NCBI GenBank assembly: GCA_020348345.1
Contig: CP070748.1
Location: 1,503,682 to 1,567,681 of the forward strand
Direction: 5' to 3'
From: Methanobacteriota archaeon
Lineage (GTDB): Archaea > Thermoplasmatota > Thermoplasmata > UBA10834
DNA length: 64,000 bases
The notes under the pieces were generated by a model. That model saw only the letters and a program-made list of their open reading frames with translations, did not search any database and was not told the DNA's origin. Position 1 is the stretch's first letter. Every line of letters begins with the position of its first letter. The translations under genes and the position numbers were made by a program. Below, in pieces: positions 5,008 through 22,779 of the stretch.

Positions 5008-5421
5008 ATGAAATTCGTCAAGTATTCACAGTCTGAGTTCGAGGAGATTCGTAGGCTTTACGAGAGCGTCATGGCACAAGCGTGCCATGGACTGTTCTTC
5101 AGAGAGGGCATGATACTTGGTGAAGAGATTTCGAAGATCGCATTGCAGGAGCCCGACAAGTACTTCGAGATCTGTGCAAATCTCTTGCGCGCGAAGGGAT
5201 GGGTCGACAACGTGGTCTTCCAGGAGTCGAGCGTCGTCGTCGAGGGCTCCTTTGAGATATGCACTTCGTCTGACGACGCCACGTGCCACCGGCTGCGAGG
5301 CATCGTGCGCAGGATGTATGAAGGGCGCTTGCGGAAACGGATGCACTGTGAGGAGATTGAGTGCACCAGCAGAGGAGACAAACACTGCGTCTTCAAGGTG
5401 GAACCTGTGGGAGGGGACTGA
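5008..5421 (+). CDS. V4R (4-vinyl reductase) domain protein
   Basis: 137 aa. C-terminal V4R signature TCHRLRG...EEIECTSRGDKHCVFKV. Paralogous motif to the N-terminal half of ORF 18336..19268. Confidence 0.75.
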   Translation: MKFVKYSQSEFEEIRRLYESVMAQACHGLFFREGMILGEEISKIALQEPDKYFEICANLLRAKGWVDNVVFQESSVVVEGSFEICTSSDDATCHRLRGIVRRMYEGRLRKRMHCEEIECTSRGDKHCVFKVEPVGGD

Positions 5422-5770
5422 AACGGAGCTAAAACCGGCGCTGCGCCAACTCAGGGATGAATTCGGAGCCTTCGCTTCCGCAATCGTGAGCCGAGACGGC
5501 TTGATAATGGCTGGCGACATACCCGATGACATTTCGGGCGAAACCTTCGGCATAATGTGTGCCACGCTCCTCGGAGCCGCATCGACCGCGCACTCGGAGC
5601 TCAAGGTCGGCACTCCGCACGGCATCGTGGTCGAGAGCGACGATGCCATGATGATCGTCGTGGGCGCCGGAAGAAAGGCTCTCATCGTCTCCGCCATGCC
5701 GCGCGAGGTCGATTGTGACGCGGCGAGGAAGAAGCTAGAGGAGTTCGCGGAGACGATAAAGCTCATCTGA
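5348..5770 (+). CDS. Roadblock/LC7 (MglB-fold) domain protein; start codon unresolved
   Basis: Distal part of track ORF 5117..5770. LRQLRDEFGAFASAIVSRDGLIMAGDIPDDISGETFGIMCATLLGAASTA...IVVESDDAMMIVVGAG fits Roadblock/LC7. In-frame starts are ATG 5318, GTG 5348 and TTG 5357. All lie inside the V4R gene. Confidence 0.65.
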   Translation: MRRLSAPAEETNTASSRWNLWEGTETELKPALRQLRDEFGAFASAIVSRDGLIMAGDIPDDISGETFGIMCATLLGAASTAHSELKVGTPHGIVVESDDAMMIVVGAGRKALIVSAMPREVDCDAARKKLEEFAETIKLI

Positions 5771-17673: not shown

Positions 17674-17784
17674 GCACTTACACGCATAAAGGATTTACTG
17701 ACAGAGGCTGTATACTCTCTCATCGCGTCGTTAAATGCCCTATGAAGCGGAGCAGCGACTCGCGACCGTCTCGGATTTATGAAC

Positions 17785-17794
17785 GATTAAATAG
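17785..17794 (+). promoter_or_regulatory. TATA-like box upstream of the small GTPase gene
   Basis: GATTAAATAG is centred ~34 nt upstream of ATG 17824. Same spacing as the other putative promoters in the window. Confidence 0.3.
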
Positions 17795-17823
17795 ACTCTG
17801 GAACATTAGCGGGATGTTCTTCG

Positions 17824-18339
17824 ATGCCCCCTCAGAAGTACATATTGAAGGTTTGCCTGCTAGGTGACGGCGCGGTCGGCAAGACGAGTCTCGTAAGGCG
17901 TTTCGTCTTCAACGCCTTTGACGACAAGTACCTGCAGTCGTTTGGAACAAAGGTGTCCAAGAAGACTGTGCTCCTCGAGGATGCCGAGGTGAACCTGATG
18001 GTATGGGATATTCTGGGTCAGCGGACGCAGAAGAACCTTCATGCGGCGTACTACCGAGGTGCCTCGGGGGCACTCGCCGTTTGCGATTGCACCCGCCCCG
18101 AAACGCTGCAGTCACTGTCTTCCTGGATTGACGGCTTTCTTTCGGCGGTTGGCGAGGCGCCGATAATCGTTCTGGTGAACAAGAGCGATCTGGATCCAGC
18201 ATTTCCGCTCGATGATGTCAGGTCATTCTCCGATTCGATCGGCTCGCTCTTCATGGAGACGAGCGCCAAGACGGGGGAGAATGTCGAGGAGGCGTTCGCC
18301 GAGATTACCAGAAGGATGGTGACGGGGGATTCTGAGTGA
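17824..18339 (+). CDS. Ras/Rab-like small GTPase
   Basis: 171 aa. G1 GDGAVGKT, switch-I T in FGTKV, G3 WDILGQ, G4 NKSD, G5 TSAK. This is the full Ras-superfamily motif set and order. Confidence 0.85.
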   Translation: MPPQKYILKVCLLGDGAVGKTSLVRRFVFNAFDDKYLQSFGTKVSKKTVLLEDAEVNLMVWDILGQRTQKNLHAAYYRGASGALAVCDCTRPETLQSLSSWIDGFLSAVGEAPIIVLVNKSDLDPAFPLDDVRSFSDSIGSLFMETSAKTGENVEEAFAEITRRMVTGDSE

Positions 18340-19268
18340 GGGCCATACCTTTCTTCGTGATGCCTGGCATCGCCCTCTCCCACCTGAGGGAGGAGCTTGA
18401 GATAACCGAGGGCGATCACAGGGCTAAGCTAATGTTATACAGGTACGGTCAGAGATGCGGCAGAGCGTTGGTTGACAGCTATGGTCTGGAATGCTCCGCT
18501 CTTGAAGAGGTCAAGGCGTTAATCGGTCCTATATGGATGGAGGCAGGTCTCAGCAGGATCCGGATCGAATCAGCGGAGGAGACGGAACTTGTCGTGAATC
18601 TGGACGAATCGGTGGAGTCCAAGGAGGGCAACACATGCGACTTCGCCCGCGGGTATCTATCCGGAATCGTATCACAGCTCACTGCCAAGCGCTTCGAGGT
18701 GGATGAGATCGAATGCGCCAGTCGTGGCTATCTGTCCTGCGTTCTGCAGGTGTATGAGGTGGTGGACAACCTTCGTCCTTCCAGACAACCCGACGTAGGC
18801 ACGGAAAGGAAGTACAATCTCGAGACCGGCTACTCCTACCTGATAAAGGAGGAGATACCGGACCAGTCATTCGATATGTTCGTCGACGCCTATAGACACG
18901 GCATCCCGTCCCTCTGTGTAACTCGCGAGTATCCAGAGAAGGTGAAGGAAAAGTACGACATCCAGGGAGCTCCGTTCCTATGGCTCTCAATGGATCAGCA
19001 GAAGAGCTACTCCCGCGATCCATCCAACCTGGCACTGTTATACTCCGACATCAAGACCTTCGTGATCGAGAACCCGGGATGTATAATACTCCTCTCGGGC
19101 CTCGAGTATCTGGTGTCCCAGAACGGATTCACGAAGGTGTTGAAGCTATTGCAGCACATGAACGACAAGGTCGCCGTGACAGATTCCATTCTGCTGGTGC
19201 CTGTGAGCCCTCTCACCCTCATGGAGCAGGACCTCAAGATGCTGGAGAAGGAGCTGCGCTCCTTCTAG
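18336..19268 (+). CDS. V4R domain :: DUF835 domain fusion protein
   Basis: GTG start overlaps the GTPase stop (GTGA). N-terminal half carries V4R (TCDFARGYLSG...DEIECASRGYLSCVLQV). C-terminal half is DUF835-like (YLIKEE...CVTREYPEKVKEKY...FLWLS...ILLSGLEYLVSQNGF...LLVPVSPLTLMEQDLKMLEKEL). Confidence 0.75.
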   Translation: MRAIPFFVMPGIALSHLREELEITEGDHRAKLMLYRYGQRCGRALVDSYGLECSALEEVKALIGPIWMEAGLSRIRIESAEETELVVNLDESVESKEGNTCDFARGYLSGIVSQLTAKRFEVDEIECASRGYLSCVLQVYEVVDNLRPSRQPDVGTERKYNLETGYSYLIKEEIPDQSFDMFVDAYRHGIPSLCVTREYPEKVKEKYDIQGAPFLWLSMDQQKSYSRDPSNLALLYSDIKTFVIENPGCIILLSGLEYLVSQNGFTKVLKLLQHMNDKVAVTDSILLVPVSPLTLMEQDLKMLEKELRSF

Positions 19269-19282
19269 GTTGAGCAGATAAG

Positions 19283-19747
19283 GTGATAATGATTTCGAAG
19301 TATGGTCTTGTCATCTGTCCCGCATGCGGCAAAGCCCGCGGTGTGATAGCAAGCCGGAAGACCTCCTCGTGTCCCTGTGGTCGGCAGGTGAAGATACGCA
19401 AGTCTATGATCAAGTTCAGGACGGATTCCCCAATTGAACTCGCGGAGATGGTCGCTCAGGCGAACGCGCAGCTCGCAAGCGGGAAGAAGCTCAGGCGCTC
19501 GAAGACCAGAGCGTCATCAGATCCTTGCGTAAGGGTCGCGCAACGCGTAATGTCGGTCAGCGGCTCGTCGGAGAGGGCTGAAGCTATCGCGCGCGAGCTC
19601 ACCGACGAGATCGGCGATTTTGGCCTCGAGGAGATGCGCCGCGTCCTTGAGGTACTAGGCAGAAACAATCCCGAGGATGTGATGACCAAGCTCAAGGAGG
19701 GCAGTCTGATATACGAGATCAGCGAAGGACGGTTCAGAATCGCGTGA
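19283..19747 (+). CDS. zinc-ribbon protein (possibly DUF1922-like), third gene of the GTPase operon
   Basis: 154 aa, 14 nt after the previous gene. ICPACGKARG...SCPCGRQV is a four-Cys ribbon, followed by a helical C-terminal half. GTG 19283 or ATG 19289. Confidence 0.55.
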   Translation: MIMISKYGLVICPACGKARGVIASRKTSSCPCGRQVKIRKSMIKFRTDSPIELAEMVAQANAQLASGKKLRRSKTRASSDPCVRVAQRVMSVSGSSERAEAIARELTDEIGDFGLEEMRRVLEVLGRNNPEDVMTKLKEGSLIYEISEGRFRIA

Positions 19748-20476
19748 TCATCGTTTCTTCTTCGGCTTCGGTCCTGCCAGTCTTTTTGCGTCCTGGATGA
19801 GCACGGGGAGTGATAGCCTGTGAACCTTCACGTAGCCGTAGATCACGACGACGTATGCCGCCGCCAATCCGAGCAGGTTCAGAGGCGGCTCGATTACGTC
19901 GTACATGAAGAACGGCACCATGAACAGGTTGTAGCCGATGTGAATGAGCAGCGCTTCGGAGAAGTAGGGCTTGACCTCACCCCTCGCCACGCCGATGCCT
20001 ATGAACGCCGTTGTCGCTCCATGGAGGAGAACGAATTGGAATCCCAGGAGCGCGTATGCCGTCATATCGATGGCACTCGGTTCCTCGATGCCCAGAGCGC
20101 TCGCGTATATCGTGGCGAAGGTGAATGTCGCCGATATCCCGAGCCCGAATGACAGCCCGTAGAACGCGGTGTCGATCTTGCGCTGGAATCTCGGGAAGTT
20201 CAGTATCATCAGCTTCATCGACTCCTCCATCAGAGCGAAGCCGATGATCAGCACGAGGAGCGTCTCCGCCGACGATGCTGTACTGCCCCATTCCTCGAAG
20301 GCGAACAACACCATTCCCAGCACGATTCCGAGAGCGAAGAAAGCGAAGACCTTCCTATCATCAAAGAACGGCTTCTCGACCGCGGGGAAGGTGTAGTCTC
20401 TCAGAGTGTAGAACATGAGCGCCATGGCGGGTGCAAACCCCGCGACTCCGCTGACTATCAAGACAATATCCGCCAC
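19748..20476 (-). CDS. polytopic membrane protein, PrsW-like intramembrane protease family (tentative)
   Basis: 242 aa, ~7 TM helices. LMEESMKL (EExxK-like) and later His-containing TM motifs (LLHGATTAF, LIHIGYN). Confidence 0.5.
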   Translation of the reverse strand: MADIVLIVSGVAGFAPAMALMFYTLRDYTFPAVEKPFFDDRKVFAFFALGIVLGMVLFAFEEWGSTASSAETLLVLIIGFALMEESMKLMILNFPRFQRKIDTAFYGLSFGLGISATFTFATIYASALGIEEPSAIDMTAYALLGFQFVLLHGATTAFIGIGVARGEVKPYFSEALLIHIGYNLFMVPFFMYDVIEPPLNLLGLAAAYVVVIYGYVKVHRLSLPVLIQDAKRLAGPKPKKKR

Positions 20477-20847: not shown

Positions 20848-22779
20848 TCATCGCCTCTTGCTGCGTGTTCTTCTACCCGACTTGGGGGCCGAATCTAGCC
20901 CCGATGCCAGTTTATCGAAGTAGTGTGCCACGACACAGCTGTCTGTGCATCTGCCACAATGAACGCATTTGCTGGCATCGACGACGGGTCTTTCTTCCAT
21001 CGACACTGCACCGCGCTCGCAAGCTCTCTCGCAGTTGCCGCACCCGGTGCAGAGGCTAGCTCTGAGCAGAGCTCGTGCGCCTTTGTCGAACAGCTCTTTG
21101 GCGGCCGAGGGCGACTCATCCGTTGCCGAGATCTGGCCGCCTGCGAAAATTCTCAATCGCCCTCCATCGGAGTCCAACCTGGCCACTCCGAATTCTTCGG
21201 AGAGATCGACTTCGTCGATGGTTTTCAGCACCTCGCCGACATCCTCAAGCGCCGCTGGTTTTGGCGTCGATAGAACGCCGTCAATCGAATAGCCTCCAGA
21301 TCCGCATGGACTGACTCCCTTCACCACTTTCAGGCTGGGGGCGTCCGCCCCGGCTGGTGCAACTTCAATCCGGAGTCTGCGGGCGAGTTCACGCATCTTG
21401 GGAGGCAGCGCCTTCCATCGCCAGAATCCGTGAGTCACGAACTCCCTTGGGAGCCCATTGCCTTCCGCCCATTCAAGAAGGCGGGCCTCCCATCCGCGGG
21501 CCATGTCCGGCGATATACGCGATATCTCCTCGGCCTCGCTAGCCAGGGCCGATGGACACATCCAACATCCGACCCTTTCGATGTCCTCGTCGTAAAGAGG
21601 ATTGTACTCGAGATTTCGCCATATTATGTACAGCCAAACGTCCAGCGCCGTCCAGTTCCTTATCGGGTTCACCGTAATCTGCCCCGGCACGAAAGGGTTT
21701 TTCTCAATCAGATCCGTGTGGGCCCTGGAGAACGACTCCAGCCTTCTGTTGCCCTCGATGGTTATCGTGCCGTCCGGAAACCTCTGCTCTATCAGCGAAG
21801 AGGCGGGAGCGAGTTTGCAAACCTTGCAGCACCATCTGAAATCCTTGGCGGGTGGTCCGAACGAGGGCAAGTGATCGTAGAAGGCATTCCCCGCATGGCC
21901 CTTCAGGAGCCTCACTCCTCTCTGTTTGACGAATCGTTCGATGTACTCCTTCGTGTGCGGATGCTCCAGCCCCGTATCGATGAATATCGCTGTAACATCG
22001 ATCGCGACCGTTTGGGCGAGGTCAAGGGCGACCAGACTGTCCTTGCCTCCGCTGAAGGAGACGGTCACCGACAGCTCCGAATCCGAAATGGCGCCTCTGA
22101 GCTCATGTTCTGCTTTGGACCGCTTTGCGACGAGATGGGGTTGATTCGCACGCACCAGCACCCTCGTTCTCGTCTTCTTGCTCTTTGGTGCTAGCGGTGC
22201 CTTCTTGGCGAAATCCCTGACCTTGACCCCCTTATTCGAGTGAAGCAGTGAGGATGCGTCAACCTTGGAGAACCCACATCCGATGAAAGCTCCCATTCTG
22301 ATGACAACCTCGTCTCCCGCTCTGATCCCGCGATCAAACGATTCGATAGCATCTGACGGGAGGTACTTCCCTCTCATGTGGCCTTCGACCTTGCGCAGTA
22401 CTATCTGCTTGCGCGAGTCCATTGCAGCAAGCATTCTCGCGCCGTCGAGACGGAGCAGAAGCTCATGGCGTCGGTGGTCGAGGTCGTATCTGAGGAGTGC
22501 GACTCTGTGCCCGTCTATAATCACCTCCTCCGCGCGGTCGTCCCCGGTCGCCTTGTTGAGAACGACGACGTCCTGCACGAGCTGCTGGACCCCGAAATCT
22601 TTCAGGAAGAGGTATCTGAGCTTCTTCTTGGTGCCGTCCAGTGCCAACCTGACATCTCCCGGCGGTACGAGCGGCACTTCTCTGCCGGCCTCGCCGCACC
22701 TACCGCAGCTGAGACCGATGAGCGGAACGTTGCACTTGTCGCACCAATGAAGCCTCGCCAGTGTTCCGTGATGGCGCAT
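20848..22779 (-). CDS. PAPS-reductase/PP-loop family protein with N-terminal zinc ribbon, PUA-like domain and C-terminal 4Fe-4S ferredoxin domain
   Basis: 643 aa. WCDKCNVPL...CGRCG; a PUA-like segment GDEVVIRMGAFIGCGFSKV; PP-loop VSFSGGKDSLVALDLA; C-terminal CTGCGNCERAC...CVHCGRCTDSC. Confidence 0.75.
   Translation of the reverse strand: MRHHGTLARLHWCDKCNVPLIGLSCGRCGEAGREVPLVPPGDVRLALDGTKKKLRYLFLKDFGVQQLVQDVVVLNKATGDDRAEEVIIDGHRVALLRYDLDHRRHELLLRLDGARMLAAMDSRKQIVLRKVEGHMRGKYLPSDAIESFDRGIRAGDEVVIRMGAFIGCGFSKVDASSLLHSNKGVKVRDFAKKAPLAPKSKKTRTRVLVRANQPHLVAKRSKAEHELRGAISDSELSVTVSFSGGKDSLVALDLAQTVAIDVTAIFIDTGLEHPHTKEYIERFVKQRGVRLLKGHAGNAFYDHLPSFGPPAKDFRWCCKVCKLAPASSLIEQRFPDGTITIEGNRRLESFSRAHTDLIEKNPFVPGQITVNPIRNWTALDVWLYIIWRNLEYNPLYDEDIERVGCWMCPSALASEAEEISRISPDMARGWEARLLEWAEGNGLPREFVTHGFWRWKALPPKMRELARRLRIEVAPAGADAPSLKVVKGVSPCGSGGYSIDGVLSTPKPAALEDVGEVLKTIDEVDLSEEFGVARLDSDGGRLRIFAGGQISATDESPSAAKELFDKGARALLRASLCTGCGNCERACERGAVSMEERPVVDASKCVHCGRCTDSCVVAHYFDKLASGLDSAPKSGRRTRSKRR

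Follow-up and report, generated by a model that had tools for sequence, protein, structure and literature searches.

The question raised by the locus considered here is whether a Ras-like small GTPase and the V4R-domain protein encoded immediately behind it form one signalling unit in an archaeon outside the Asgard group and, if so, what each partner would do for the other. The locus lies in a 64,000-nucleotide (nt) stretch of DNA, hereafter the window, from contig CP070748.1 of a Methanobacteriota archaeon (assembly GCA_020348345.1, positions 1,503,682 to 1,567,681), a metagenome-assembled genome (MAG) of Thermoplasmata/Thermoplasmatota. On the forward strand of the window, positions 17824-19747 hold three co-oriented open reading frames (ORFs), which encode a 171-amino-acid (aa) Ras/Rab-like small GTPase made up of the G domain only (17824..18339), a 310-aa V4R::DUF835 fusion protein (18336..19268) and a 154-aa zinc-ribbon protein (19283..19747). 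An earlier sequence-only reading of the window had described these ORFs, assigned them to a non-Asgard archaeon and proposed that the V4R::DUF835 protein is a dedicated regulator of the GTPase. All three ORFs are present where that reading had placed them, and its non-Asgard assignment also holds. As it had reported, the GTG start codon of the V4R::DUF835 gene at 18336 overlaps the TGA stop codon of the GTPase gene (18337-18339) in the sequence GTGA, and the zinc-ribbon ORF starts 14 nt 3' of the V4R::DUF835 stop codon. On the basis of a near-universal pairing of the two genes and one natural fusion of their products, both described below, we conclude that the GTPase and V4R::DUF835 very probably work jointly as a switch in signalling.

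The conservation of the pair was first assessed in 43 species-level genomes, all of which were Thermoplasmata/Thermoplasmatota MAGs. It should be noted that the patterns used in this genome-contig scan were specific to the clade of the window, so that only this clade was returned and the wider breadth described below comes from metagenome contigs without taxonomy. The gene order GTPase, V4R::DUF835, zinc ribbon was found in all 43 genomes. The stop codon of the GTPase gene and the start codon of the V4R::DUF835 gene overlapped by 4 nt in 32 species and by 1 nt in 10, and were 1 nt apart in one. The neighbouring genes were retained as well, including a membrane protein (43/43), a 107-aa ORF (43/43) and a PAPS-reductase-like gene (41/43). 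Because the whole neighbourhood is syntenic, the clade of the window alone cannot part function from inherited order.

Distant loci were therefore needed to separate the two, since an order inherited within one clade would be seen there in any case. In an exhaustive HMMER search, the full V4R::DUF835 architecture was recovered in ∼20 representative clusters, at an identity of 28-47%. The contigs of these distant members were examined together with those recovered by a metagenome-contig scan with a distant-member profile, and Ras-like ORFs were sought at every locus. A locus was considered assessable if at least ∼520 nt were available upstream of the V4R::DUF835 gene (n=101). A Ras-like GTPase gene was identified directly upstream and on the same strand in 100 of these 101 loci, a count that is not biased towards GTPases because the loci were retrieved by the V4R::DUF835 protein alone. 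When the V4R::DUF835 proteins were clustered at 55% identity, nine clusters were obtained; seven of them had the GTPase, one (L046) had none and one was not judgeable. The dedicated pair proposed from the single sequence is thus a conserved one: it survives changed flanking genes and is found in three operon layouts, and in one case the two proteins are fused.

The three layouts differ in the number of GTPase and V4R genes. Type A operons (GTPase, V4R::DUF835, zinc ribbon) are found in the clade of the window and in two deeper small clusters. In type B operons, a long Ras GTPase (243-288 aa) is followed by a 180-aa GTPase and then by V4R::DUF835; their flanks are unrelated (for example, prolyl-tRNA-synthetase-like and Asn-synthase-like genes), and one subgroup has a standalone V4R gene downstream. 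Type C operons contain a GTPase, V4R::DUF835, a second GTPase and a standalone V4R protein of 162-192 aa. The standalone V4Rs are 30-43% identical to the fused V4Rs and have the motifs FFIMP, LWIEIGLGR, CDxTRGY and ExxCxSxGD in common with them; judged by sequence, standalone and fused V4Rs are one V4R subfamily. The 162-192-aa proteins, found as second matches in type C operons, had been considered as candidate DUF835-only proteins, a view rejected when Pfam identified them as standalone V4R. The fusion is a 527-aa single ORF (L131, 4001-5584, assembly GCA_030595765.1; protein P0202), composed of a Ras domain (residues 6-180), a Cys-less V4R-like segment and a DUF835 domain (residues 375-506). 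As a separate observation, the first GTPase of type B operons (L077, 2595-3446; L044, 3640-4461; L048, 2545-3276) carries a C-terminal extension of ∼60-100 aa, for which no Pfam match was found at the two loci tested (L077 and L044).

Which half of the V4R::DUF835 protein is linked to the GTPase can be approached through proteins that have one half only. No Ras neighbour was found for V4R-less DUF835 proteins in four out of four loci, on contigs ranging from 16 kb to 1.8 Mb, and a general DUF835-GTPase coupling, which had also been considered, was dropped on this ground. Taken together with the standalone-V4R/GTPase pairs, these four loci point to V4R as the GTPase-linked element. Thus, it is V4R, or this V4R subfamily, that GTPase coupling seems to track, and not DUF835.

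The GTPase has the features expected of a functional member of the Ras superfamily. It was matched by Pfam Ras (3.2e-35; 121.6 bits against a cut-off of 21.6), Roc (1.4e-26) and TIGR small_GTP (1e-17), and, with motifs G1-G5 in order within a G domain of ∼170 aa, it belongs to PF00071. The motifs GDGAVGKT (residues 14-21), WDILGQ (61-66), NKSD (119-122) and TSAK (146-149) are those listed in the sequence-only reading, and all five motifs are intact, including the catalytic Gln66. The one part of the listed set that needs correction is G2: alignment to Thor-Rab and Rab22 places the canonical switch-I residue at Ser39 in QSFG and not at the Thr of FGTKV. Among 113 unique family members encoded in these operons, the switch-I column is S or T in 112 and the signature of the region is KY[LI]x[ST][FI]GTKV; depending on the motif, conservation extends to 104-113 members. 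In G3, Gln is present in 104 members and His in 8, and Asp62 is kept in 112 of the 113. As G1-G5 and the catalytic Gln are conserved over the family, we read the GTPase as an active switch, and on these motifs its relatives look like working switches too.

With regard to its place within the superfamily, the closest solved structure was a Thorarchaeota Rab (7ezb, 1.6e-31), with many eukaryotic Rabs next in rank, and the alignment to Thor-Rab and Rab22 spans residues 3-167. The RabF4 motif YYRGA is present, and FGTKV stands in place of the RabF1 motif IGVDF. The C-terminus (...RRMVTGDSE) contains no Cys and no hypervariable tail. Because of the missing C-terminal Cys and tail and the FGTKV at RabF1, the protein should be called Rab-like and not Rab proper. 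It is not an MglA protein either: its G3 motif is WDILGQ with Asp62, and its adjacent partner is V4R::DUF835, not Roadblock. In the MglA family, Thr is reported to replace the conserved G3 Asp (PMC3000849). Ras-like identity, which the sequence-only reading had claimed, is therefore clear, and the choice it left between Ras/Rab and MglA falls on the Rab-like side, short of Rab proper.

The partner protein is a fusion of V4R and DUF835, as had been claimed, with both Pfam matches above their gathering cut-offs (DUF835, 1.2e-27; V4R, 3.9e-10). The V4R domain occupies approximately residues 1-145 (18336..18770, forward strand), of which residues 95-139 match Pfam V4R (PF02830; 40.1 bits against a gathering cut-off of 31). 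Residues 34-138 also gave a partial match to NCBIfam MsvR (NF053755; 8.8e-9), at 35 bits against an equivalog cut-off of 220, and redox is suggested by this match as a possible input. A sequence search of the PDB with the V4R half returned MJ1460 and PoxR. We then used an AlphaFold2 (AF2) model of the whole protein, for which a 26-sequence alignment gave a predicted local distance difference test score (pLDDT) of 87 and a predicted template-modelling score (pTM) of 0.61, compared with a pLDDT of 40 from the single sequence. In a Foldseek search of the PDB with this model, the phenol-sensor domains of DmpR, PoxR and MopR ranked first (E 3e-8 to 1e-6), and Bet3/TRAPPC3 formed a second tier (E 3e-6 to 1e-4; template-modelling score 0.55-0.70 normalised to the target). 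Further matches included YslB, the MJ1460 V4R protein and Thor-TRAPPC3 (1.2e-4), and the Foldseek probability was 1.00 for PoxR, MopR, MJ1460 and Bet3. The V4R domain thus has a Bet3-type fold, as the earlier comparison with Bet3 had implied, but this resemblance ranks below that to the bacterial sensor V4Rs.

Residue conservation points in the same direction as the fold search. In family alignments, C101, E124, C127 and C135 of the V4R domain are invariant, and they align with the Cys, Glu, Cys and Cys of the PoxR segment vCwmq...yrElEC...hphC, which we take to be the zinc ligands of PoxR and MopR. Membership in PF02830 is accordingly borne out by the profile score, by the match to the alpha/beta fold and by the Cys/Glu site.

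The DUF835 domain covers approximately residues 166-310 (18831..19268, forward strand); residues 176-307 match Pfam DUF835 (PF05763) with 96.7 bits against a gathering cut-off of 33.1, which places the domain in this family by profile. It appears to have a P-loop-NTPase-like alpha/beta fold that lacks Walker A: YLIKEEIPDQSF stands at the position of GxxGxGK[ST], and the P-loop position reads KEEIPDQSF. The AF2 model has a beta-alpha-beta core in this half. The V4R/Bet3 fold accounts for all but one of the 50 Foldseek matches listed; the exception is the RecA-like ATPase Rho (6xav, E 1.6e-4). DmpR aligns with the model over two domains. No match was obtained in a PDB-sequence profile search with the DUF835 half, and an hhalign comparison of the DUF835 profile with one KaiC-like protein was not significant. 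The earlier remark that no function has been assigned to DUF835 is out of date in part, as the domain has been listed as an inactivated KaiC-like (iKaiC) domain that serves as a response-regulator output (Galperin et al., 2018, PMC5847659, citing Makarova et al., 2017).

Elsewhere, DUF835 is found as the C-terminal module of quite different architectures, including PAS-GAF-GAF, 7TM, REC, HHH, zinc-ribbon and IleRS-like giant proteins, and some DUF835 members carry the Joint Genome Institute (JGI) name 'FlaH'. Two of the giants (P0211, 1733 aa; P0244, 2329 aa) have an odd architecture in which a class I (Ile/Val-type) tRNA-synthetase region is combined with HHH/TPR segments and a C-terminal DUF835 domain. 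At one of the four V4R-less loci considered above (L128, 3001-4720), the DUF835 protein is encoded directly 5' of a KaiC-like ATPase gene (PF06745) and 3' of a ParA-like gene, an arrangement that fits DUF835 working with KaiC-type ATPases.

The third protein of the operon was also regarded by the sequence-only reading as part of the module. It comprises an N-terminal ribbon of the DUF1922/DUF5817 type, to which the Pfam matches were weak, followed by a basic linker and, at the C-terminus, a conserved domain of ∼55 aa resembling a winged helix. Residues C12, C15, C30 and C32 are invariant in orthologues, so the zinc-ribbon character noted before stands, and MTH1184 (1gh9) was matched at 1e-3. 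The gene is present in 43/43 genome loci of the clade of the window. By cluster, it was found in 74 of the 78 loci of the 55%-identity cluster to which the window belongs and, beyond that cluster, only in the two small ones nearest to it, and in none of the type B and type C operons; it is an accessory gene of type A operons only. In two loci from deeper type A relatives, a gene for pyruvoyl-dependent arginine decarboxylase (PvlArgDC, 3.3e-41) splits V4R::DUF835 from the zinc-ribbon gene (L099, 4979-5449; L126, 2433-2903), with an overlap of 1 nt between its end and the start of the latter. Given this insertion, the zinc-ribbon protein may belong with a different neighbour.

How might the two paired proteins act? 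The account towards which we lean, with some reserve, is that V4R::DUF835 is a sensor or scaffold with a dedicated Rab-like GTPase, and that V4R contact couples a ligand or redox signal to the nucleotide state. V4R would be a zinc-stabilised domain that responds to redox state or to a small ligand bound by it, and DUF835, as a presumed inactive KaiC-like domain, probably serves oligomerisation or docking. Translational coupling would ensure that the GTPase is made in fixed proportion to V4R::DUF835. V4R would then contact the GTPase, and its signal state would set, or read, the nucleotide state of the latter. The GTP-bound GTPase would hand the signal onward, in the clade of the window perhaps to the co-transcribed zinc-ribbon/winged-helix-like protein. 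That the two proteins touch, which way the signal runs, what it consists of and what it leads to are all features that we infer.

Several points weigh against this account. Gene order cannot tell regulator from regulated, and the 43 syntenic genomes of the clade of the window contribute little as independent evidence. The phylogenetic breadth is modest, since every named source is a Thermoplasmata/Thermoplasmatota MAG, and the comparison with V4R-less DUF835 proteins uses a small sample of four loci. The gene at L046 (5001-6017) is the sole V4R::DUF835 gene without a GTPase neighbour; it comes from assembly GCA_030595765.1, the same assembly as the fusion, and the fused GTPase may serve both the fusion and the L046 protein. 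In addition, the link between the zinc-ribbon protein and the GTPase/V4R pair is weak.

Three other explanations were weighed against the sensor/scaffold account. In yeast TRAPP, Bet3 contacts Ypt1 and the Bet3 C-terminus enters the nucleotide pocket, and the main Rab-binding surface of TRAPP is provided by longin-type subunits. By analogy, V4R, as a homologue of Bet3/TRAPPC3, might be a guanine-nucleotide exchange factor (GEF) or a platform for one, and the operon a minimal prokaryotic counterpart of TRAPP-Rab. The homology between V4R and Bet3 is published (PMC2253512) and was reproduced at the level of fold in the second-tier Foldseek matches given above; the nearest solved relatives of the GTPase are Thor-Rab and eukaryotic Rabs, and the pairing tracks V4R rather than DUF835. 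However, the structure of the V4R domain resembles the ligand sensors PoxR and MopR more closely than Bet3, and it has kept their zinc site, and the Asgard TRAPPC3/V4R proteins are probably ligand-binding according to Tran et al. (2024, PMC10933270). Moreover, no longin or sedlin domain could be found in any operon variant or in the called neighbours, the rest of the genome not having been searched. Considering both sides, we regard a TRAPP-like exchange role as unlikely.

The second explanation reverses the roles, so that V4R::DUF835 is the output: the GTPase in its GTP form would bind V4R::DUF835 and alter the assembly of DUF835 with KaiC-like partners. The published listing of REC-DUF835 proteins, in which DUF835 is a response-regulator output domain (PMC5847659), agrees with such an effector, as does the one DUF835 gene that adjoins a KaiC-like ATPase gene, and type B operons with two GTPases would fit a GTPase cascade into one effector. 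On the other hand, V4R is a typical input domain and is located N-terminal to DUF835 in the same way as PAS, GAF, 7TM and REC elsewhere; furthermore, GTPases are also paired with standalone V4R proteins that have no DUF835, a pairing that an output role of DUF835 would not call for. We consider the effector role quite improbable. The third explanation, that the two genes are co-transcribed neighbours serving separate processes and held together by lineage-specific synteny, could draw on the surrounding 6 kb, which is conserved throughout (membrane protein, 107-aa ORF, PAPS-reductase-like gene and ABC ATPase) in the 43 genomes of the clade of the window, but it is already disfavoured and very improbable, as the pair stays where all other neighbours differ, start and stop codons overlap in 42/43 species, a fused gene exists, and paralogue expansions add GTPases and V4R genes jointly.

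The sensor/scaffold arrangement can be compared with several known systems. MglA/MglB, the conservon CvnA-D and Rup group 1 (PMC4316618) likewise have a single-domain Ras-superfamily GTPase beside a dedicated non-GTPase partner and are linked to signalling. In contrast with MglA/MglB, the partner here is V4R::DUF835 instead of Roadblock/LC7, and the GTPase, with its DxxGQ motif, groups with Rab/Ras. V4R, DUF835 and KaiC are not mentioned by Wuichet and Sogaard-Andersen (2014, PMC4316618). In the TRAPP-Rab1/Ypt1 system and in Thorarchaeota TRAPPC3/Thor-Rab (PMC10933270), the V4R/Bet3 fold is likewise linked to a Rab-like GTPase; unlike TRAPP, the present operon has no longin or sedlin found in it and no multi-subunit core, and its V4R is joined to a domain classed as inactive KaiC-like. 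According to Tran et al. (2024, PMC10933270), the GTPase genes of the Asgard archaeon MK-D1 do not as a rule share operons with those for TRAPPC3, roadblock or longin proteins, whereas the coupling of GTPase and V4R observed here is tight.

The phenol-responsive sigma-54 activators DmpR, PoxR and MopR, which combine V4R with an AAA+ ATPase, share with V4R::DUF835 the Cys-Glu-Cys-Cys site and the order of a sensor V4R followed by a domain of, here apparent, P-loop type. However, the second domain here lacks Walker A and does not belong to AAA+, neither an HTH nor a sigma-54 system is present, and the NTPase is a separate GTPase. The methanogen redox transcription regulator MsvR also has a V4R domain with conserved cysteines, but V4R::DUF835 lacks the N-terminal DNA-binding domain, has different partners and scores far under the equivalog cut-off. 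Among archaeal KaiC-like and inactivated KaiC signalling proteins (DUF835, MEDS; Makarova et al., 2017, as cited in PMC5847659), DUF835 is likewise C-terminal in REC-, PAS-GAF- and 7TM-DUF835 sensors; compared with other DUF835 proteins, the present ones are a V4R-input subfamily tied to a Ras-like GTPase, whereas the four others mentioned above are not. With respect to the GTPase, the Rab-like GTPases of Thermoplasmatales/Aciduliprofundum (Surkont and Pereira-Leal, 2016, PMC4915359) also lack a C-terminal Cys and come from non-Asgard Euryarchaeota; neither V4R nor operons nor gene neighbours came up when that paper was searched by term. The searchable literature, which did not cover Makarova et al. 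(2017), contained no description of this operon or of any coupling between V4R proteins and GTPases in a prokaryote. A GTPase with a co-encoded partner is a known theme, and the V4R-type partner appears to be new.

The operon has its own promoter, as the sequence-only reading had suspected. A BRE-like element (GAACGA) and a TATA box (TTAAATA) at 17781..17793 (forward strand) lie ∼34 nt 5' of the GTPase ATG, and the promoter core GAACGRTTAWATA is kept in 14/14 aligned orthologous upstream regions in which the flanking intergenic sequence is not kept. Because this distance is only ∼34 nt, the leader should be very short or absent. Downstream of the TATA box and ahead of the start codon, a CATTAGC motif (17804..17810, forward strand) is kept among closer relatives in the upstream alignment and could be an initiator region or element, or an operator. 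A TetR gene is located upstream in divergent orientation. The 3' end of the operon is abutted by a convergent gene for a 242-aa multi-pass membrane protein (19748..20476, reverse strand; no Pfam match), as had been noted. This protein keeps its place next to the operon only within the type A clade; beside type B and type C operons it is absent, and its membership in the module is doubtful. It carries the motifs EESMK, HGATT and HIGYN, which presumably recall intramembrane proteases of the PrsW/CPBP type. Across the type A clade the operon is also adjoined by a gene for a 643-aa protein (20848-22779, reverse strand), which combines Cys pairs near its N-terminus and a weak match to PUA with a PAPS-reductase/PP-loop domain (1.5e-43) and, at the C-terminus, a ferredoxin domain of the 2x[4Fe-4S] type.

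A second V4R gene next to a Roadblock gene at 5.0-5.8 kb had been cited in favour of a wider GTPase-regulatory network. Both genes are real: a standalone V4R gene is located at 5008..5421 (forward strand; Pfam V4R, 1.1e-11), and a Roadblock/LC7 ORF at ∼5405..5770 (forward strand; Pfam Robl_LC7, 2.8e-8). Nevertheless, this V4R is <30% identical to the operon V4R family and no GTPase gene was found near the pair, so that the two genes add little support to a network. The Roadblock ORF has no ATG, GTG or TTG near the start of its N-terminal helix, and its frame crosses the V4R stop codon (TGA, 5419-5421), which suggests a non-canonical start, a V4R-Roadblock product made by frameshifting, or an assembly indel.

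With respect to the evolution of GTPase regulation, V4R had previously been proposed as the prokaryotic ancestor of the Bet3 subunits of TRAPP. The operon layout of MK-D1 gives no clue as to which regulator serves which GTPase, and the present operon supplies a defined pair. The pair is cloneable (171 aa and 310 aa), and numerous orthologues are available alongside paralogue variants and a naturally occurring fusion; through it, the control of a Rab-like GTPase by V4R, the signal that is sensed and the role of DUF835 become directly testable. That V4R is itself a direct, signal-gated regulator, either a GEF or a GTPase-activating protein, of a Rab-like GTPase in Thermoplasmatota is a narrower proposal that we consider unlikely. 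If it were true, the V4R/Bet3-Rab partnership would predate TRAPP and would not be confined to the Asgard-eukaryote lineage, and the operons with two GTPases and two V4Rs would represent heterodimeric precursors of Bet3-type pairs. Joint action of the GTPase and V4R::DUF835 would, in addition, bring a GTPase branch into a view of archaeal signalling that is centred on KaiC.

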